DNA of 38,883 bases from a bacterium (GTDB lineage Bacteria; Bacillota_I; Bacilli_A; RF39; UBA660). The position numbers and the translations under genes are program-made. The stretch lies in contig JAQXMG010000012.1 in NCBI GenBank assembly GCA_029012525.1, forward strand, positions 1 to 38,883, written 5' to 3'. Shown here piece by piece: positions 23,217-33,105 of the stretch. The notes under the pieces are model-generated. The model made no database searches and was not told the DNA's origin. It worked only from the letters and a program-made list of their open reading frames with translations. Position 1 is the stretch's first letter. Every line of letters starts with the position of its first letter.

Positions 23217-26150
23217 ATGTATTTAAAAGAAATAAAGATATCTGGTTTTAAATCATTTGCAGATAAAATTAATTTGAGTTTAGACGATAATATTACTTGT
23301 ATTGTTGGTCCTAATGGAAGTGGTAAAAGTAATATAATAGATGCGGTTAGGTGGGTTTTAGGAGAACAATCTATTAAAAATTTACGTGGTTCTTCTAATA
23401 TGACAGATGTTATTTTTGCGGGTAGTAAAAGTAGAAATCCTCTTAATTTAGCAAGTGTTTCTTTAGTATTTGATAATAGTGATTCTTATTTAAAAGTGCC
23501 TTATACAGAAATATGTATAACAAGAAAAGTATATCGTAGTGGTGAAAATGAATACTATATAAACAATGAAAGATGCAGATTAAAAGATATAAACGATTTA
23601 TTCTTAGATAGTGGTATGGGTAAATATGCTTTTAATATCATATCTCAAGGAGAAGTTGAAAAAGTAATAAGTGATTCACCACTTGATCGTAGGGTTATAT
23701 TTGAAGAAGCTGCAGGAGTTTTAAAATATAAAAAAAGAAAAGAAGAAGCATTAAAAAAACTTGATAGAACAAATGATAACTTAAATAGAGTATCAGATAT
23801 TATAAATGAATTAGAAAAAGAAATAACACCTCTTGAAGAACAAAGTATTAAAGCAAAAAAATATTTAGATATAAAAGAAAAATTAGAAAAAGTTGAAGTT
23901 GCCCTAATAGCAAATGATTTAGATAAACTAGATTTAGTATATAAAAAAACAGAACAAGAAATAGCTAAACTTCAACAAGAAATAATAGAATTAAATACTA
24001 AAAATACAAGTGATGATGTTTCTTTAGTTAAGAAAAAAGAAGAATTAAACAAATTAAAAGATGAAATAGTTATATTAAATAATCAATATTTATCTTTAAC
24101 CAAAGAAGAAGAAAGAATTAATGGTGAAAGAAATATTATAAAAGAAAGAAGTAAATATAGTGCAAATGATATTAAAATTCATGAAAATATTTCAAACTTA
24201 CAAGAAGAAGTTTTTTCACTTAATAATAAACTGTTATCTTTAAAAAGTGATATCGATATAACTAATGATAATTTAATTAATTTAAAAAATGATAAAGAAA
24301 AAATAAATGAAGATTTGAAAGAAAAAACAAATAATGTTAATAAATATGAAATAGAAATATATAATAAGCAAAAAGAATTAACTAACTTAGAATATAAAAT
24401 AAAATCTTTAGAAGGTTATCTTTTAGAAGGAGGAAGTACTAATTCTAATGTTAAAAGACTACTTTCTTGTAAAAGTATAAAAGGTATTCATAATACAATT
24501 GCATCTTTAGTTAACACTAATGAAGAATATGCAACAGCTTTAGATGTTGCTTTAGGAGGTTCAAAAGATTATTTAGTTGTTGATAATTCAGAAGTTGCTA
24601 AAACTGCAATTAATTATTTAAAAGAAAACAATCTAGGAAGAGTAACTTTTTATCCACTTGATGTAATTAAACCTCGTTATATAGAAGAAGAAATAGTAAG
24701 ACTTTTAAAAAAAGAAGAAGGATTTATTGATGTATTATCTAATCTTGTTTCATATGATTATAAATACTCTAATATTATAAATAATAGATTAGGTAATATC
24801 TTACTTGTAAAAACAATTGACAATGCTAATGAAATCGGAAGAAAAACCAAAAATAAATTTGTTATAGTAACACTTAGTGGTGAAATAATTAATGTTGGAG
24901 GCTCAATTACAGGTGGTTCTATAAAACAAAAAAGTATTATAAGTGAAAAATATGAATTACAAAATTTAATTAATAGAAAAGAAGATTTAGCATATGAAAT
25001 TAAAACTTTAGAAGAAAAACAAAATAGTTTAAACGAAGAAAGACAAAAAGTACAAGAAGAAGTTATTGTAAAAGAAAAGGAAAAATTACTTCTTGATGAA
25101 GAAATAAAAACTAAAGAAGAAAATTATAATAATGTTAAATTATCTCTAGATCAAAAGAATTTAGAACTTAATAATTTAAAAGATTTAGTTGAAGATAACA
25201 TAACTAAAGAAGAAGAAGAAATAACAAAAAAATATTTTGATGTATTAAACAAAAAAGAAGAACTTGGTAAAAAAGTTATGATTACAACTAAAGAAAAAGA
25301 AAAATTAGAGCAAGAAATAGAAAAAATCCAAGCTAATTTTAGATTAAGTAGTTCCAATATTCATAATAAAGAACAAGAATTAAAAGAATTAGAAATAAAA
25401 AATACCAGAAATAGTATCAGAATGGATAGTTTGCTTAATACTTTAAGTGATACTTATGAGATGACTTTTGAAAAAGCAAAAAAAGACTATATTTTAGAAG
25501 AGGATGAAGATTTAGCAAGAAAAAAGGTTAATGATTATAAAAAAATTATCAAAGATATTGGAGAAGTTAACACATCATCAATTGATGAATATGATAGAGT
25601 TAAAAAAAGATATGATTTTTTAACAAAGCAAAGTGAAGATTTAAAAGATGCAATAACAACACTTTTATCTATTATTGATGAACTTGATGAAGTAATGAAA
25701 ACTGAGTTTATTAAGACATTTAAAGAAATAGAAATAGAATTTGATAAAGTATTTAAAGATTTATTTGGTGGAGGAAGTGCCAAACTTACTCTAACTGATA
25801 AAGATAATATCTTAGAAACAGGTATTGATATAAATGTAACCCCACCTGGTAAAAAAGTATCTGCTATATCTCTTTTATCGGGAGGAGAAAAATCATTAAC
25901 TGCGATAAGTTTACTTTTTGCAATACTTAATATTAAAAGAGTACCTTTTTGTTTATTTGATGAAATTGAGGCAGCACTTGATGAAGTTAATGTTTCTAAG
26001 GTTGGAGAGTATTGTAGTAAATATGTAGGTAAAACACAACTTATTATTATTACTCATAAGAAAAAAACTATGGAATACGCTAATACTTTATATGGTATTA
26101 CAATGCAAGAATCAGGAGTTAGTAAACTTGTTAGTGTAAAGCTTGTATAA
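23217..26150 (+). CDS. smc: chromosome segregation protein SMC (short form, ~977 aa)
   Basis: The N-terminal Walker A (GPNGSGKSNIIDA), hinge (GIHNTIASLV...ALG), signature LSGGEKSL and Walker B (FCLFDEIEAALD) are all present. ATG 23217, with a GAAGGTG SD, is preferred to GTG 23208. Confidence 0.94.
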   Translation: MYLKEIKISGFKSFADKINLSLDDNITCIVGPNGSGKSNIIDAVRWVLGEQSIKNLRGSSNMTDVIFAGSKSRNPLNLASVSLVFDNSDSYLKVPYTEICITRKVYRSGENEYYINNERCRLKDINDLFLDSGMGKYAFNIISQGEVEKVISDSPLDRRVIFEEAAGVLKYKKRKEEALKKLDRTNDNLNRVSDIINELEKEITPLEEQSIKAKKYLDIKEKLEKVEVALIANDLDKLDLVYKKTEQEIAKLQQEIIELNTKNTSDDVSLVKKKEELNKLKDEIVILNNQYLSLTKEEERINGERNIIKERSKYSANDIKIHENISNLQEEVFSLNNKLLSLKSDIDITNDNLINLKNDKEKINEDLKEKTNNVNKYEIEIYNKQKELTNLEYKIKSLEGYLLEGGSTNSNVKRLLSCKSIKGIHNTIASLVNTNEEYATALDVALGGSKDYLVVDNSEVAKTAINYLKENNLGRVTFYPLDVIKPRYIEEEIVRLLKKEEGFIDVLSNLVSYDYKYSNIINNRLGNILLVKTIDNANEIGRKTKNKFVIVTLSGEIINVGGSITGGSIKQKSIISEKYELQNLINRKEDLAYEIKTLEEKQNSLNEERQKVQEEVIVKEKEKLLLDEEIKTKEENYNNVKLSLDQKNLELNNLKDLVEDNITKEEEEITKKYFDVLNKKEELGKKVMITTKEKEKLEQEIEKIQANFRLSSSNIHNKEQELKELEIKNTRNSIRMDSLLNTLSDTYEMTFEKAKKDYILEEDEDLARKKVNDYKKIIKDIGEVNTSSIDEYDRVKKRYDFLTKQSEDLKDAITTLLSIIDELDEVMKTEFIKTFKEIEIEFDKVFKDLFGGGSAKLTLTDKDNILETGIDINVTPPGKKVSAISLLSGGEKSLTAISLLFAILNIKRVPFCLFDEIEAALDEVNVSKVGEYCSKYVGKTQLIIITHKKKTMEYANTLYGITMQESGVSKLVSVKLV

Positions 26151-26173
26151 AGATGCCTTAGGGTGTCTTTTTT
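26151..26173 (+). terminator. probable terminator after smc
   Basis: Imperfect stem AGATGCC / GGTGTCT (contains G-U pairs) followed by T6. Confidence 0.5.
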
Positions 26174-26301
26174 ATGCTTTTATTTACAAAAAATAGTTAT
26201 ATTGCTATAATAAAATTATAGTTAGAGGAATGTGAAAATTATGGAAAAAGAAAAATAGAATATTACACATTAAGACCAAATTTAAAACAAGTATATGGTA
26301 A

Positions 26302-26562
26302 GAAGTATTACAGTTAGATGATGATATTGAAGGACAATTTGCCTGGGGAGATTATATCAGAGATGATGCAGAACAAGCATTAAAAGAATGGAAAATTAAA
26401 ATTTATAGTAGTGATCCAATAAAACAAGGTTCATTTGTCTCAACATCTTATATTCAAGCAGAAGAATATGCTGGTGGTAGGGGCAATAAAGTATATGAAA
26501 AAATAGTACCATTAAATGAAGTTGCCTGGATTAACGGAGACGAAGGGCAATATGCTAGAGTA
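26302..26562 (+). repeat. repeat module X, copy A
   Basis: Aligns without gaps to 29008-29268. I count about 14 mismatches by eye, mostly at third codon positions. Confidence 0.9.
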
Positions 26563-27306
26563 CAACCAAATGTATTAACTGTTACAAATTCTCAACAAGG
26601 AGTAAAATTGTCTATTGCAAAAGAACAAAATAATTCAAATATAAACAATGTTAATAATGTGAGCCAAGAAACGATAGATAAATATGAAAATGCTAAAGAA
26701 ACTATTGATAGAAAGACATTATTAGAAGTGGCTGATACACTAGAAATTTATTTTAAGAAAGGCGCTATTGTTACAATAGATGAAAATATGTCAAAAAGAG
26801 CAGGTAATAATAAAACGCCTAAAATAATAGATGTTTCTAGTTTTGACAAAACAGGAAATTTAGAAATTCTGACACGAGAAGTTAATGATTTAGCTAAGGA
26901 AATGTATTCAAATAATCAAAACAGATATACACTTGTTGAAAATATTGATACAAATACAAATTTTGAATTAGGAAATTTAGGCATAGATAAAACTTTTTCT
27001 AAAAATGTCCCATTTGAAAAATTACCAACTTATAATAAATTGAAAGAAATTGGAGAGCAAGGATTATATTATAAAACCTCTTATGATGCAAATAAAAAAG
27101 ATGGTATTAAATATCATCATTTTTTAACGCCAGTAAAAGCGATAAATACAGAAGGTAATGCGTTTATTAGAACTGTTGTTAAAGAATACACAAAGGACAT
27201 TGGACAAAATAACAAGTTTTATTATCATCAAATAGAATATTTAGATAATAGAAAAGGGATTACCGATACGAGCCATATAGGTAATCGTACTTTTGGTAAT
27301 CCCTTA

Positions 27307-27659
27307 ACTGACAACATTATAACAAATAACAACGAAAATGTCAAATTGCCTACTGCTATCAGTAATAATAATATGCAAAATAATGAAAATAATACAATAA
27401 AATCGTCTAAAACAAGTAATCCTTTAGAAATATCAAAACTAACTAAAGAAGATGCAAATACAACTCCATTACTTCCTAAAAGAACATATCAAAAAGGAGA
27501 TGGAGAAAGTAGTTTTTATAGTAATATAACTGAAAAATCAAAATTCTTAAATGAAGATTTAAGAAAAATGATGAAAGATGAAGAAAACATAGAGTATTAT
27601 AAAGAAATAACAAATAAAGATACACTAGAAAAAGCATATGAAAAACTACAAGAAGGTGG
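27307..27659 (+). repeat. repeat module Z, copy A
   Basis: Aligns without gaps to 29887-30239, roughly 90% identical or better by eye. Confidence 0.9.
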
Positions 27660-28019
27660 AATGGAAGAAACTGCGAAATGGTTTAATAAAGATGTTGAAA
27701 AAGGAAATATATCTGCAGTAGATGTAACAGAAGGCTGGATTCTTTTAAAACAATATCAAGATGCAGGAGATTATCTAAGTGCAGTAGAAGTAGCCAAAAG
27801 AATGCGTGATATTGGAACAAAAGCTGGTCAAACAGTTCAAGCATTTAATATCATGAATAGACTAACTCCTGAGGGTATGGTTTATTATGCACAAAGTGAA
27901 CTATCTGAAGCATATAACAAGATGGTAAAAAACAAAACAAAAAAATGGATAGACCAAAATATCAATAAGTTCGACTTAAATCCAAATGAAGTTAAATTTA
28001 TCATGGATACTATGAATGA

Positions 28020-28187
28020 AGTGAAAGATATGCAGAAGGTCTTTATATGGACTATCTTAAAGAACAAAATAAGCAATTAAAAAGCGTATTAGATGAAATA
28101 AGAGATAGAGCAACAATAAGATTAGCGAGATTAGAAAACGAGCCTGATTATTGTAAATGGTTTTTAGAAGGATATGACAGGGACTAA
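28020..28187 (+). pseudogene. frame-shifted linker segment joining the two long ORFs
   Basis: The alternative frame reads ...AEGLYMDYLKEQNKQLKSVLDEIRDRATIRLARLENEPDYCKWFLEGYDRD. It overlaps the end of ORF 26608-28080 and the start of ORF 28174-30291. Confidence 0.55.
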
Positions 28188-29007
28188 TACAAATGGTTGG
28201 TTAGATAAATTAACTGATAAAGAAATAAGCAAGATAAGTAGTAAAATAGTTAAGAAGATAGCAAAAAGTGGTTACTCATTTGTTGGTGAAGCAAGTGAGG
28301 AAGCATTAGCAGAAATACTAAATCCAATTATTAAAAATATGAGTTATACAGAGGGAGAAACAATTGATTGGAATGCCGTTGTAGAAAGTGCTATTGTTGG
28401 TGGATTAACTGGACAAATTCTAAATGCACCAAGCGACTTTTCATCTCAAACCATTGATAATTATAGTGGACAAATTATTTCTAATAATAATCAAATAACA
28501 AATGTCAACGAGCAATCAAATAACAATCAAATAGGTTCAAACAATCAACAAAACACAAATAACATCACTGAAAATATAACTACTGAAGTAAACAAAGTAG
28601 AAACACAAATCGCTAACAATGAAATATCACAAGAATTAGCAACAAAATCATTAAGTGAATTAAAAAATGATTTAAATATATTAAAAACATGGCAAGAATC
28701 ACAAAAAGTAAAAGAAACCAATGCTATCAATAAGGAACAAGTAAAAGTTATTGATGATTTGGTTAATAAGGTTGAAAATTTAGAAAAACAAGTAAGTGGT
28801 AAAGAAGTAAAATTACCTACTACAACTAATCAAGATAATATTAATTTGCCTATTAATACCAATCAAATTAATATACAAAATCAAGAACTAGATAATAGTT
28901 CTTTTAATTTAAAACAAAATCAACTTGAAATAATCCAAAAAAATAATCCAATGACAGATGATTACCATGTAGGAATAAGAAATGTTAATGATATTAAAAC
29001 ATGGGAA

Positions 29008-29268
29008 GAAGTATTACAGTTAGATGATGATATTGAAGGACAATTTGCATGGGGAGATTATACCAGAGATGATGCAGAACAAGCATTAAAAGAAGGGAAA
29101 ATTAAAATTTATAGTAGTAATCCAATAAAACAAGGTTCATTTGTATCAACATCTTATATTCAAGCAGAAGAATATGCTGGTGGTAGGGGTAATAAAGTAT
29201 ATGAAAAAATAGTACCATTAAACGAAGTGGCTTGGATTAATGGAGATGAGGGGCAATATGCTAAAGTG
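29008..29268 (+). repeat. repeat module X, copy B
   Basis: Partner of 26302-26562 at an offset of 2706 nt. Confidence 0.9.
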
Positions 29269-29886
29269 AATAACATTCCAATAAAACAAACAAAAGGGAA
29301 TATACCAATTAATAAGGATTTATTAAATAAATATAATAGTGTAAAAGAAATTTTTAATAATGAATCAAATAATTATGATGGAAATGTAAAAGTAAAAAAT
29401 GATATTATTGAACTTCATGGCGTAGACATTGACAATTTGTCTTCAAATGAAACAAAAAAATATGCGAAAGAAATATTCAAAAAATATAACTCTACAAATG
29501 TTTTTATAAACAATAATAATAAAATAACAGTTACATTAGGTGGTATAGAAGAAAGTATTAATAAAATATTTGCTAGTAAGACACAAAGAAATCTTTTAAA
29601 AGAACATTTATTAGTTTTTTCTGATTTAGGAGATATAATTGAACATGCTACTTTAGTCAATCAAAATAGAGAAATAAAAGATAGAAATAACATAAATTTG
29701 TGGAATTATTATTTTGATGGCTTAACTATAAACGACAAAAAATATAGTTTAGAATTTGATGTAAGGTCTATGCAAGATGGAACAAATCAATATAGAGTTC
29801 AACGATTGGAACAAAAAAAATCGATATCTCAACTCGGAGCATCAGTAAATAATACTAACACCGACCGAGCTTTCGAGACATCGATT

Positions 29887-30239
29887 ACTGACAACATTAT
29901 AGCAAATAACAACGAAAATGTCAAATTGCCTCCTGCTATTAATAATAATAATATGCAAAATAATGAAAACAATACAGTTAAATTGCCTAAAGCAAGTAAT
30001 CCTTTAGAAATATCAAAATTAAACAAAGAAGATGCAAATACGACGTCTCCTCTTCCTAAAAGAACATATCAAAAAGGAGATGGAGAAAGTAGTTTTTATA
30101 ACAATATAACTGAAAAATCAAAATTCTTAAATGAAGATTTAAGAGAAATGATGAAAGATGAAGAAACCATAAAATATTATCAGGAAATAACAAATAAAGA
30201 TACTCTAGAAAAAGCATATGAGAAACTACAAGAAGTTGG
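29887..30239 (+). repeat. repeat module Z, copy B
   Basis: Partner of 27307-27659 at an offset of 2580 nt. Confidence 0.9.
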
Positions 30240-30245
30240 GATAAA

Positions 30246-30719
30246 TTGTATGAGTATGCTTGCGTTTATTATAGACAACATGGCAATTTAGAAGTTCCAA
30301 ATTCATTTAAAACTAATAATGGCTATGAAGAAGATGAAAATGGGGAAATAAGACTTGGAGAATGGATTGTAAACCAAAGACAAAGAACATCACCAGAAAG
30401 CGAACGTGGCCAGTTATTATCAAAAATTGGGATGCGTTTTGAAGAAAAAAGAAAAAATAGAGATTTAATAACCAATATCTGTAATGAAAATAATGTAGAT
30501 ACTAAATTAAACAAAAATACTATAAATAGAATTCCATATCGAGAATTTATGTCAAAGATAGAATTTTTAAAAGAAAAAAATATTTCTTTATTAGATAAAA
30601 CAGGAAAACTTCATGAAATATTTAGTATGAGTAATACTAATATGAAACAAAAATATAATATTACTTTAGAGGAACTTATTGATAATTATTATATTAAAGG
30701 AAAGGAAAAAGGTAATTAA
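30246..30719 (+). pseudogene. helicase-associated (HA) domain fragment
   Basis: YEYACVYYRQHGNLEVPNSF...LGEWIVNQRQR...LLSKIGMRFE fits the HA repeat pattern (Y...HGh..VP...LG.W...QR...L...G..W/F). The frame opens only at 30222, exactly at the repeat Z breakpoint. The only start codon is TTG, with no SD. Confidence 0.6.
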
Positions 30720-30720
30720 T

Positions 30721-31015
30721 ATGTTTTTAGAAAAGTATTTAAATGAATTTTATTTTGATATGGTTCTTTATAATTATGAAGAGAGTTATCTTAATAGTAT
30801 TGACGAAGAAAACTTTATAAAAATATATGAAGTGTTTAAAAAATATAGTTTTTATTATATTAATGATATTATTTTAAAATATTTAGAAATATTTTAAATG
30901 AATGAAGAAAATATTATAAATGAAATTATTTCGTTAAAAAAAAGAACTTGGAGATGACTTTGTTAATATTATAGGAAATAACCTTACTTATTTAGAAAAA
31001 ATTGTTAATAACTAA
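30721..31015 (+). pseudogene. small ORF (~97 codons) broken by an in-frame TAA and a frameshift in an A8 tract
   Basis: ATG 30721 runs to TAA 30895-30897 and is immediately followed in the same frame by ATG 30898. The frame is then lost in A8 (30936-30943). The shifted frame reads ELGDDFVNIIGNNLTYLEKIVNN to TAA 31013-31015. Confidence 0.45.
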
Positions 31016-31044
31016 AAAGATTCACAAAATAATGTGAATCTTTT
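31015..31044. terminator. bidirectional terminator (right end of the insert / end of def)
   Basis: 12-bp stem AAAAGATTCACA / TGTGAATCTTTT with a 6-nt loop. Confidence 0.75.
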
Positions 31045-31594
31045 ATATTGATCTATATAAATCTGCGCCCTTAAATGGATCTTTTTTATCAATTCTATCA
31101 ATAAATAAGATGCCATTTAAATGGTCTATTTCATGTTGAAAAGCAATTGCAAGTTCTTCTCTTGCTCTTATTTTAATAGGATTTCCATCGATATCAAAAC
31201 CTTCAACGGTAACTCTTGCAAAGCGTTTTACAATACCTTCAACATCTCTATTAACAGATAAACATCCTTCTCCTTCATCAACATAAATAATTTCTTCTGA
31301 ATGACTTGTTATTTTTGGATTTATAACAACATAAGTTTTAAATGTTTCTTTTATTTCTTGTTCATGTACTATAACAAGATATCTTTTTAGTACTCCAAGT
31401 TGTACTGCAGAAAGTCCCATACCAGGTCTTAAATCATATTTTTTAGCTAATTTATCAATTTGACTATTTGTTAAATACTCAATCATTAAATCTATATTTT
31501 TTTTATCTTCTTTAGTTAAAGGAAATTCTACTTCTTTACTAACTTGTCTTAATATTTTACATTTTTCATCTAAAATATCTTTATTTGTTAACAT
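31043..31594 (-). CDS. def: peptide deformylase
   Basis: GLSAVQLG, EGCLS and HEIDHLNG motifs. ATG 31594 (GGGGTGA SD 5 nt upstream) is preferred to GTG 31603. Confidence 0.94.
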   Translation of the reverse strand: MLTNKDILDEKCKILRQVSKEVEFPLTKEDKKNIDLMIEYLTNSQIDKLAKKYDLRPGMGLSAVQLGVLKRYLVIVHEQEIKETFKTYVVINPKITSHSEEIIYVDEGEGCLSVNRDVEGIVKRFARVTVEGFDIDGNPIKIRAREELAIAFQHEIDHLNGILFIDRIDKKDPFKGADLYRSI

Positions 31595-31625
31595 ATACTT
31601 CACCCCAAACTACGTATATTATACA

Positions 31626-31663
31626 CCAAAACAATAAAAAAGGAAATATAAAATTATATTTCC
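31626..31663 (-). terminator. terminator after the yjcZ-like gene
   Basis: Stem GGAAATATA / TATATTTCC followed on the minus strand by a T tract. Confidence 0.55.
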
Positions 31664-31678
31664 AAGTTTATATTCTTA

Positions 31679-31849
31679 TTAGTTCCAGTTTCTAGCGCCA
31701 AGAATAATGATTAAAAGAATAAATAATACTAAAATAATTGCATATCCATTACCATATCCAGCGTATCCTCCGCCACAACAAGGTGTTGCTGGAACTCCAC
31801 AGCAATTTCCTGAACTGCCGTATCCATAAGAATTACCATAATAATACAT
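31679..31849 (-). CDS. YjcZ-like tiny Gly/Tyr/Cys-rich membrane-anchored (sporulation-type) protein, 56 aa. Not in the ORF track.
   Basis: Hand-translated as MYYYGNSYGYGSSGNCCGVPATPCCGGGYAGYGNGYAIILVLFILLIIILGARNWN. AAAGGAGGA SD lies 6 nt upstream. The G/Y-rich head plus the ...VLFILLII.. tail is the YjcZ-family signature. Confidence 0.75.
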   Translation of the reverse strand: MYYYGNSYGYGSSGNCCGVPATPCCGGGYAGYGNGYAIILVLFILLIIILGARNWN

Positions 31850-31974
31850 AGACATCCTCCTTTTACCTAATATAGTTTATTAGTTATGAAACATTTTTGA
31901 CATTACAAAAATCTATTTTTTTAAATAAAGTTTTAAATTTTGTTATTTTGTGTTATTATTATTGTGATGATAAT

Positions 31975-33105
31975 ATGAAAAAGTTAATAAAATATATGGA
32001 TAAAAAACTTTTAATTGCTACAATTATCTTATTTGTCTTTGGACTTATAATGATTTTTTCAGCATCTAATGTAACAGCATACATGTTTGGAGCAAGTCCA
32101 AGCAGGTATTTTTATAAACAATCATTATTTCTTTTTGGAAGTTTTATTGGTTGTACAATAATGATGTTTATCCCAACTTCAAAATATAAAAAACTTTCTT
32201 GGGTTGCTTTAATCGGAGTAACATTTTTAGTTTTTGTTGCTCTTGTTTATGGAACTGTAGTTAATGATGCAAGTGGTTGGATAGGAATAGGTGGACTTGG
32301 TATTCAACCTAGTGAATTTGCTAAAGTTGTAATAATTATGTGGCTTGCTTGTTATTATGAAACCACAAGGGATGAAGAATTTTATAATGATACTATAAAA
32401 ATGTTTTTTCCTCTTTTTGTAATAGGAATTATAACATTTTTAATAATATTACAAAATGACTATGGAACAGCATTAATATTTTTACTTATATCGATGTTTA
32501 TCTTTTTACTTTCACCAACCTCAAAGAAAATAAAATTATTAGTAGTAGGAACAGGTACTTTTCTTGTTATAACTATAGTTGTTTTATGTTTAACTGGTGT
32601 TATTAGTTTTTTATCAAGTGATAAACTTGCTAGATTTAATTTTTTTGATCCATGTAGTAGATATTTAAATGAAGGAAATCAAGTATGTAATGGTTATATT
32701 GCTATAAATGGTGGAGGAATATTTGGTAAAGGTTTAGGAAATAGTACTCAAAAATATTTGTATTTACCCGAAGGACATACTGATTTTATATTTGCTATTA
32801 TTGTAGAAGAACTTGGAATTGTTGGTGCTATTTTATTAATGTTACTTTACATGTTTGTTTTAATTAGAATAATCTTAATTGGTAAAAAAGCACCTAAAAA
32901 TTATCAATCATTAATTTGTTATGGTGTATTTTTCTATCTGTTTTCTCATATTGTAATAAATTTAGGTGGAGTGCTTGGTCTTATGCCTTTAACAGGAATA
33001 CCACTTCCATTTATGTCATATGGCGGTAGTTTTGCATTATCAACGTGTATTGCTTTAACTATGGTACAAAGAATATGCTTTGAAATAAATCAACAAAAGA
33101 ATTAA
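31975..33105 (+). CDS. SEDS-family peptidoglycan polymerase (FtsW/RodA/SpoVE)
   Basis: Multi-TM protein with GIQPSEFAK, DYGTALIF, PEGHTDFIFAII.EELG and PLPFMSYGGS motifs. The start is uncertain (31975 or 31996). The ORF-track start at 31897 is unlikely. Confidence 0.9.
   Translation: MKKLIKYMDKKLLIATIILFVFGLIMIFSASNVTAYMFGASPSRYFYKQSLFLFGSFIGCTIMMFIPTSKYKKLSWVALIGVTFLVFVALVYGTVVNDASGWIGIGGLGIQPSEFAKVVIIMWLACYYETTRDEEFYNDTIKMFFPLFVIGIITFLIILQNDYGTALIFLLISMFIFLLSPTSKKIKLLVVGTGTFLVITIVVLCLTGVISFLSSDKLARFNFFDPCSRYLNEGNQVCNGYIAINGGGIFGKGLGNSTQKYLYLPEGHTDFIFAIIVEELGIVGAILLMLLYMFVLIRIILIGKKAPKNYQSLICYGVFFYLFSHIVINLGGVLGLMPLTGIPLPFMSYGGSFALSTCIALTMVQRICFEINQQKN

Follow-up and report, generated by a model that had tools for sequence, protein, structure and literature searches.

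Results

Open frames, repeats and features of the smc-def interval

The DNA analysed in this work (hereafter the window) is the whole 38,883-nt contig JAQXMG010000012.1 (GenBank assembly GCA_029012525.1), very AT-rich DNA of an uncultured RF39-like member of the Bacilli from the pig gut. Our subject is the interval between its smc and def genes (26174-31015), in which fragments of a giant phage-type gene for a polyvalent protein lie next to a small cassette with a helicase-associated (HA) domain. Polyvalent proteins combine 2-15 distinct domains in one large polypeptide (Iyer et al. 2017, J Bacteriol; PMC5512222). The smc gene ends at 26150 and def converges on it from the minus strand (31043-31603), a terminator marking either edge of the interval, within which GC is slightly higher (0.26-0.30) than in smc (0.21-0.24). 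The closest Smc in one-genome-per-species data is only 67% identical, and contigs nearly identical to the window come from sample sets including one labelled pig gut metagenome.

Two internal direct repeats recur through the interval, D2 (26295-26561 vs 29001-29267, 95% identity) and D1 (27307-27606 vs 29887-30186, 91% identity), their first and second copies being called a and b. The features are listed below in window coordinates; L001 is an independent ENA assembly of a sister strain and L151 a phage contig with an intact homologue, both described further on.

26149-26170, plus strand: intrinsic terminator of smc, left edge of the accessory interval (terminator scan)
26183-26211, plus strand: orphan putative sigma-70-like promoter, TTTACA, 17 nt and TG-extended TATAAT (11 of 12 consensus positions; same in L001)
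26241-26258, plus strand: orphan start, a purine-rich ribosome-binding-like AGAGGAA followed by ATG and only five codons (MEKEK) before TAG (sequence reading; same in L001)
26295-26562, plus strand: unit 1, 5'-truncated D2 copy (D2a) without ~35 N-terminal residues, TAA at 26299 (95% to 29001-29267)
26563-27306, plus strand: unit 1, variable module A, LPD3-like domain at ~26878-27222 (Pfam LPD3, 28.9 bits)
27307-28044, plus strand: unit 1, D1 linker (27307-27660) and the first ~130 residues of a ~840-aa C-terminal region (homology)
28045-28182, plus strand: junction segment between the units, origin unassigned (frame 0 open 28020-28184; no counterpart in L001)
28183-28560, plus strand: unit 2, 3' part of the N-terminal Gly-rich domain, 5'-truncated (L151 aa 309-410; N-terminal regions of P0003 and P0005)
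28561-28899, plus strand: unit 2, N/Q-rich coiled spacer (position matches the N-rich spacer of the L151 giant)
28900-29280, plus strand: unit 2, complete D2 domain (D2b), ~120 aa (phrog_13543, E = 4e-16)
29281-29886, plus strand: unit 2, LPD3 module, Pfam match at 29449-29793 (37.7 bits)
29887-30242, plus strand: unit 2, D1 linker copy (D1b), truncated after 'EKLQE', where it meets the HA gene (91% to 27307-27606)
30237-30719, plus strand: HA gene, start codon lost (Pfam HA, 44.1 bits)
30721-31015, plus strand: pseudogene of the 96-codon HA partner (TAA 30895; frameshift in the A8 run 30937-30944)
31015-31044, both strands: bidirectional terminator common to def, right edge of the interval (terminator scan)

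Reading through these features, frame 1 is open from 26236 to 26298, meets TAA 26299, which pairs with GAA 29005 in the D2 repeat alignment (offset 2706), and is open again from 26302 to 28077 (stop TAA 28078). It is followed by frame 0 at 28020-28184 (55 codons), frame 1 at 28168-30288 (stop TAG 30289), frame 0 at 30222-30716 and frame 1 at 30670-30894. A preliminary description, made from the sequence alone, had placed the chain of frames, the TAA/GAA pair, the repeats and both terminators exactly so. The polyvalent-type ORFs are thus fragments of 490-705 aa, each with one Pfam domain and D2; the frame is interrupted by the two TAA codons and by a change of frame at ~28044-28183, domains are truncated at every end, and the C-terminal region is reduced to 10-15% of its length.

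The orphan start at 26241-26258 may be the stump of an earlier gene, though no parent is recognisable; homology to D2 was looked for to the left of 26295 as well, and none was detected. By sequence reading, an AAGGAG lies 7 nt upstream of the annotated TTG start at 26608, and the ATG at 28174 is without a properly spaced Shine-Dalgarno sequence.

The LPD3 and D2 domains

Against a Pfam cut-off of 27 bits for LPD3 (PF18798), this domain is found at aa 428-542 of the 28168-30288 frame with 37.7 bits, and again in 26560-27310 with 28.9 bits when that stretch is scanned alone, so that a domain of the polyvalent class stands above its curated threshold twice in the interval. Two segments within these modules had been likened in the preliminary description to nuclease-like or 'large polyvalent protein-associated' domains. 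The latter name was right, both being LPD3, but nothing nuclease-like came to light: the AlphaFold2 model of the 29281-29886 module (pLDDT 80.6) had no Foldseek match in the PDB at E <= 0.001, and its weak, non-significant matches were NTF2/SnoaL-like.

D2, with the motif NPMxDDYHxGIR ... VYSSxPI ... VAWINGDEGQYA, matched no family in Pfam, just as the ~840-aa C-terminal region matched none at the thresholds used; an NCBIfam scan gave nothing meaningful, and a D2 profile run against PDB sequences gave nothing credible. Its single PHROGs match is phrog_13543, of unassigned function (E = 4e-16). The D2 profile retrieves 998 representative protein clusters, 884 of them at E <= 1e-10, and D2 occurs in at least 131 IMG/VR contigs. 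The AlphaFold2 model of D2 reaches a pLDDT of 92; Foldseek found no PDB match for it at E <= 0.001, three of the weak matches being KptA/Tpt1 enzymes of the ADP-ribosyltransferase fold, and the best BFVD matches were gut-phage polyvalent proteins with 50-56% identity. The H...Y-S-S...E-x-Q pattern and these weak fold matches of the predicted model hint at the possibility that D2 is a minimal enzyme domain of a new, ADP-ribosyltransferase-like kind. A confidently predicted fold without a solved relative makes it, in any case, a good target for structural and biochemical work.

Intact phage homologues and the two partial copies

Protein searches with the window ORFs returned homologues whose Pfam domains are of the polyvalent type only: MuF_C, ART-PolyVal, LPD1, LPD3, LPD23, LPD38, PBECR3 and ParB, with fusions to portal and prohead-protease domains. 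The intact full-length homologues that the preliminary description had proposed to look for do exist in 30-40 kb IMG/VR contigs, where the gene is one giant ORF of 1,961 aa (L151) or 2,374 aa (L101). Full-length carriers of D2 are mostly 1,900-2,900 aa long; the giants sampled also carry MuF_C, PBECR3, LPD23, ART-PolyVal and, in one protein of 4,254 aa that has LPD23 and ART as well, four copies of LPD3. In contig L097 the homologues directly follow genes for a P22-type portal, a major head protein, a virion structural protein and a tail fibre. Such neighbours were found in L097 and the IMG/VR homologues only, the window copy being flanked by smc and def without an adjoining portal, terminase or structural gene. 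From this gene position in phage contigs, and by analogy with the polyvalent proteins described in PMC5512222, the parent giant protein was presumably a virion component that entered the host together with the DNA. A tblastn search of INPHARED phages with the 707-aa ORF gave one unannotated match, to D2 only, whilst the same search of PLSDB plasmids gave none; a conjugative-element origin, which had also been proposed, is therefore unsupported.

Two homologues deserve mention in their own right. In L097 the giant gene consists of a 1,000-aa ORF (7024-10026) and a 994-aa ORF (10001-12985) that overlap by 26 nt in different frames, split exactly at the D1 linker. This split may reflect two genuine genes, a site of frameshifting or a fault of assembly. 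In L098, a metagenome-assembled genome (MAG) of 44% GC, D2 and LPD3 occur together in an intact 967-aa protein (10001-12904) that stands alone between ftsH and uvrB, with no phage genes nearby; the chromosome may here have retained a polyvalent protein.

The L151 protein gives the layout of the whole. A Gly-rich N-terminal domain (to ~aa 410) and an N-rich spacer are followed by D2 (648-769), an LPD3-like module (768-987) with the motif '...YHHFLTPVKA.DTEGNAFIR.VVKE...KFYYHQ.EY', the D1 linker (1019-1123) and a C-terminal region of ~840 aa. Unit 1 is collinear with it across 1.4 kb: module A is 48% identical to aa 768-987, and 27307-28044 is 56-62% identical to P0049, P0048, P0006 and L151 aa 1019-1245. 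In unit 2, the spacer at 28561-28899 has just weak, sub-threshold coiled-coil-type Pfam matches (e.g., FliJ), and the homology of D1b to P0048, P0049, P0006 and P0005 stops at 30240.

The preliminary description had explained the chain of frames as a single ancestral frame of more than 1,300 codons, and here it was mistaken. Unit 1 (26295 to ~28044) corresponds to ~aa 697-1245 of the L151 protein and unit 2 (28183-30242) to ~aa 309-1105, and since these ranges overlap there must be two copies rather than one frame. Judged by their alignments, the units are two partial tandem copies of one giant gene, each cut at both ends and joined by deletion. Between them, homology to the C-terminal region ends at ~28035-28044 and homology to the N-terminal domain begins at ~28183, leaving 135 nt that are open in frame 0 and match nothing. 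The 55-aa frame-0 peptide of 28020-28184 has no homologue among more than 70 proteins of the family, and the two frameshifts once assumed around it are therefore conjecture; an open frame of 55 codons at ~27% GC has, by our estimate, a chance of roughly 0.6% per frame.

The copies also differ in a telling way. Compared as paralogues, D2a and D2b give a pN/pS of 0.10 and D1a and D1b one of 0.26, with pS at ~0.2, i.e., they differ mainly at synonymous sites and should therefore have diverged as working genes. The simplest setting for this would be two related phages, and not a duplication at the site with subsequent drift.

The D1 repeats hold one further feature on the minus strand. The only two perfect TTGACA-N17-TATAAT sequences (with TG extension) in the 38.9-kb window lie antisense within them, at 27316-27344 and 29896-29924, where the plus strand encodes DNII(T/A)NNNENVKLP; L001 has one of the two as well, and there is none in the third allele (L092, see below) or in the phage homologues checked.

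The HA cassette at the right end

The HA domain in 30222-30716 scores 44.1 bits against a cut-off of 28.4 (Pfam PF03457), which places this ORF in the HA family. It is collinear with the intact 163-aa protein P0079 of contig L181, one of several small proteins of related bacteria (P0076, P0077, P0079) with one to three HA repeats, and in L181 the 163-aa gene is immediately followed by an intact 96-aa gene. When 30721-31015 is repaired (TAA 30895 read as sense, and a -1 shift at 30937-30944), its translation aligns to the 96-aa product of L181 from end to end, with 57% identity and E = 1e-31, and the stretch is indeed a single decayed gene. Across 81 viral loci, neither HA nor the partner gene (orf96) was found at a distance of up to 8 kb from D2, which separates both from the polyvalent gene. 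The HA domain noticed in the preliminary description is thus real, although it was wrongly counted into the polyvalent frame: as far as homology can tell, the HA piece is a separate, nearly full-length gene which, with its broken partner, was never part of that frame.

At the point where the cassette meets D1b (30236-30242) the two homologies overlap by ~6 nt, that of HA starting at 30237, and this junction is identical in all seven other assemblies that reach it. Position 30291, in the HA frame, is G in the window (GAA) and T in all eight other assemblies that cover it (TAA), so the HA frame is open in the window only; the lesions of the partner gene, TAA 30895 and the A8 frameshift, are repaired in no other assembly covering them. 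The same position touches two frames at once: the G, present in one of nine assemblies, also makes the TAG of the polyvalent frame, where T would give TAT. Within the cassette, 30703-30772 has a GC content of just 17%; two independent assemblies, L085 and L086, stop at precisely 30772, and the scaffold of L084 has a gap over 30703-30772, breaks that are likely a matter of sequencing-coverage dropout.

Comparison between strains

Over 18 kb the flanks of L001 match those of the window at 98-99% identity, and the two strains agree in the left junction (26295), TAA 26299, the D1b-HA junction and the order of units. Between D2a and D1a, however, L001 carries MuF_C (Pfam, 55.2 bits) in place of the LPD3-like module. 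Its junction of unit 1 and unit 2 lies elsewhere and is in frame, with ~70 more codons of the N-terminal domain and ~110 fewer of the C-terminal region than in the window, and extra TAA codons stand at window-equivalent positions 26464 and 28546. The ORFs are thus not kept as intact separate genes in this sister strain; had they been, this would have spoken against decay. L092, which spans D2-LPD3-D1 up to the HA junction, has a third allele of the LPD3 module, and the D1 copies share patches of sequence crosswise between the window and L001.

Both units have a pN/pS of 0.46 between these two strains, compared with 0.06 for smc, 0.13 for gmk and 0.19 for comEC. A substitution falling at random in these ORFs would create a stop in about 5.5% of cases, so that ~3 nonsense changes would be expected among the ~58 substitutions if these were neutral; two are seen, and none in the housekeeping genes. 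Recoding of stop codons was considered and rejected: both TAA and TAG occur as in-frame stops, code 11 translates the flanking genes without difficulty, and deletions or junctions make up several of the lesions.

The smc-def gap in related genomes

Smc similarity retrieved 80 relatives, and in about 28 of them the contig with smc also includes def. All but one of these ~28 have the complete order smc, def (minus strand), ftsW, and most have comEA and comEC as well. In four of them (L058, L062, L068 and L069, with Smc 49-50% identical) smc and def are just 35-50 nt apart, and in others the gap is filled by unrelated cargo of 0.5-6 kb. The comparison of relatives that had been recommended therefore identifies the smc-def gap as a hotspot of accessory cargo across RF39-like bacteria. 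No homologue of the polyvalent protein or of any window ORF was found in this gap in these relatives. One cargo recurs in several relatives (L034, L039, L040, L044, L053, L056 and L063): a ~480-aa protein with an HEFxH metallopeptidase-like motif, in one to three tandem paralogous copies.

As previously noted, there is no integrase, tRNA or flanking direct repeat: the Pfam domains of the interval are LPD3 and HA only, there is no tRNA in the entire 38.9-kb window, and the repeat search of the window reported no flanking direct repeat. The hallmarks of an integrated prophage or integrative element (integrase or recombinase, att repeats, tRNA target) are thus missing, and integration by a site-specific recombinase cannot be shown. 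Neither were a recombinase, immunity-like small ORFs or notable inverted repeats found at the locus. The five ORFs matched no family of the PADLOC-DB 2.0 defence profiles at E <= 0.01, Rfam had no match in 25500-32000, and neither the left junction nor the smc terminator turned up when JGI metagenome contigs were scanned for their exact patterns.

Discussion

The results of this work suggest, with a probability of about 80%, that the interval is what remains of phage polyvalent-protein genes decaying in a cargo hotspot, where they are fused to an HA cassette that is decaying as well, and that it amounts to non-functional or nearly non-functional debris. Its accessory position, the homology to phages, the truncations, the strain-specific lesions and the exchange of a module are all observed directly. 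In general outline, this is the accessory insert without a housekeeping gene, made of pieces of a decayed giant modular polyvalent-type gene, that the preliminary description had supposed, now backed by two LPD3 domains and by intact phage homologues; and as between its two closing alternatives, the relic of an element fits much better than an active conflict locus, given the missing PADLOC match and the roughly neutral rate of nonsense changes.

The history of the locus could be pictured as follows. The parent gene would have encoded a polyvalent protein of 2,000-2,400 aa just after the portal, capsid and tail-fibre genes, with a Gly-rich N-terminus, an N-rich spacer, D2, one or more swappable modules (LPD3, MuF_C/PBECR, ParB, ART), D1 and a C-terminus of ~840 aa, and its product would, like the polyvalent proteins already described, have been packed into the virion and delivered with the DNA. 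Because the two copies diverged under purifying selection, they would have originated in different phage alleles, probably contributed by two different phages, and would then have been trimmed by deletions. At the right end, microhomology may have joined them to the unrelated two-gene HA cassette, itself decaying. Small deletions and nonsense mutations would afterwards have accumulated at about the neutral rate, whilst homologous recombination with phage DNA in the conserved D2 and D1 stretches would have exchanged the module between them. Any residual expression from the orphan promoter would yield truncated products only.

Several observations do weigh against so passive a history. The locus persists in at least nine assemblies from several sample sets, and even at so high an AT content its two long ORFs (490-592 and 705 codons) have stayed open. 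Upstream stands a putative promoter close to consensus, AAGGAG precedes TTG 26608 by 7 nt, and D2b-LPD3-D1b is open in all three alleles seen (window, L001 and L092). The pN/pS of 0.46, from small counts, is below 1, the intact 967-aa relative of L098 shows that chromosomal copies can stay whole, and decay alone cannot swap a module between strains whose flanks are ~99% identical, which takes recombination. Apart from persistence and the swap, these are also the points in favour of domestication, i.e., of the long ORF or ORFs, especially D2b-LPD3 (28174-30291), being host genes expressed against incoming phages or elements, the L098 protein standing in a housekeeping context; and the use by hosts of polyvalent proteins that lack a mobile-element context is a hypothesis on record (Iyer et al.; PMC5512222). 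Even so, we consider domestication unlikely, since the breakpoints differ between strains with ~99% identical flanks, L001 has extra TAA codons in both units, D2a is without its first ~35 residues and the C-terminal region is cut to 10-15%. ATG 28174, moreover, is without a properly spaced Shine-Dalgarno, PADLOC has no match, and nonsense changes occur at the rate expected under neutrality.

Assemblies made of short reads might, on the other hand, have produced the structure artificially, if the 270-300-nt repeats were collapsed or mis-threaded, or if the host was joined into a chimera with a co-occurring phage allele. Most of the other assemblies do break in D1b (L084, L090, L091, L094 and L096) or at 30772 (L085 and L086, with the gap of L084), the variable segments lie exactly between the repeats, and the D1 copies are mosaics. 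Yet the window (an NCBI MAG) and L001 (ENA) both span the interval with the same outer junctions (26295; 30236-30242) and unit order, L092 independently spans D2-LPD3-D1 to the HA junction, the D1b-HA junction is the same in seven other assemblies, and stops and truncated domains are not what a collapse of repeats would be expected to leave, all of which makes an artefact very unlikely. That the D2 and D1 repeats should be programmed anchors, shuffling modules into an expressed gene in the way of the orphan cassettes of polymorphic toxins, is an idea that the wholly different D2/D1-flanked module of near-identical strains, the D1 patches shared crosswise and the three LPD3-module alleles could inspire. 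It is hardly credible for a locus in which one finds neither an intact full-length gene to receive modules nor a recombinase, immunity-like small ORFs or notable inverted repeats, all the more so as ordinary homologous recombination with infecting phages suffices and mosaicism is known in prophage polyvalent proteins (PMC5512222).

The decaying-relic interpretation also places the locus in a known kind, that of host-genome remnants of phage polyvalent proteins, of which it is a fairly ordinary and well-supported example. It shares LPD3 with these proteins, and its intact kin join MuF_C/PBECR, ParB, ART-PolyVal, LPD23 and LPD38 beside portal and capsid genes. It shares as well the extreme mosaicism of modules described for the family, and it fits the 'third context' of PMC5512222, i.e., copies left in host genomes, which that paper already regards as what invasive elements leave behind. 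It is unlike them in being two truncated, overlapping copies with nonsense codons, and the D2 subfamily, as sampled, is without the zincin peptidase or methylase-helicase module. Like a cryptic prophage remnant, it is phage DNA between housekeeping genes, eroded and still able to recombine with related phages; unlike one, it keeps pieces of a single phage gene, in two copies, and no other phage gene. As for the HA proteins (PF03457), the window ORF has one HA repeat and is collinear, together with its 96-aa partner, with small gut-bacterial HA proteins, but it has neither a helicase nor a start codon of its own and is broken by TAA in eight other assemblies. From polymorphic-toxin loci it is set apart by having no intact full-length gene or small conserved ORFs between modules, and by modules that belong to the middle of the parent protein instead of its C-terminal tip.

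If the relic were not inert after all, the orphan promoter might drive the D2b-LPD3 ORF (28174-30291), whose product could, for instance, interfere with the ejected polyvalent protein of related phages, the locus serving as defence and as a reservoir of modules that the chromosome and its infecting phages trade through D2 and D1. Taken jointly with an ADP-ribosyltransferase-like activity of D2, such a role strikes us as rather unlikely.

The decaying relic has its uses even without any function. It illustrates the erosion of phage DNA in the reduced genome of a gut bacterium, where pieces of one giant gene survive and strains ~99% identical in their flanks already differ by deletions, stops and the swap of a whole module. 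It also leads to a large unnamed family of presumably virion-associated gut-phage proteins of 2,000-2,900 aa, in which D2 is the best conserved part (~1,000 clusters), and D2 and the ~840-aa C-terminal region are the parts most worth following. The smc-def hotspot, in turn, should be useful for finding accessory genes in uncultured RF39-like genomes, and the three genes annotated here as 'hypothetical protein' or 'HA domain' deserve to be flagged as pseudogene fragments. Nearby, downstream of comEC, a gene of the DUF1016/YhcG nuclease family is a single 232-aa ORF in L001 (17367-18065) and is broken into ORFs of 88 and 105 aa in L090 (6039-6737) and L091 (6012-6710), another strain-specific pseudogene.

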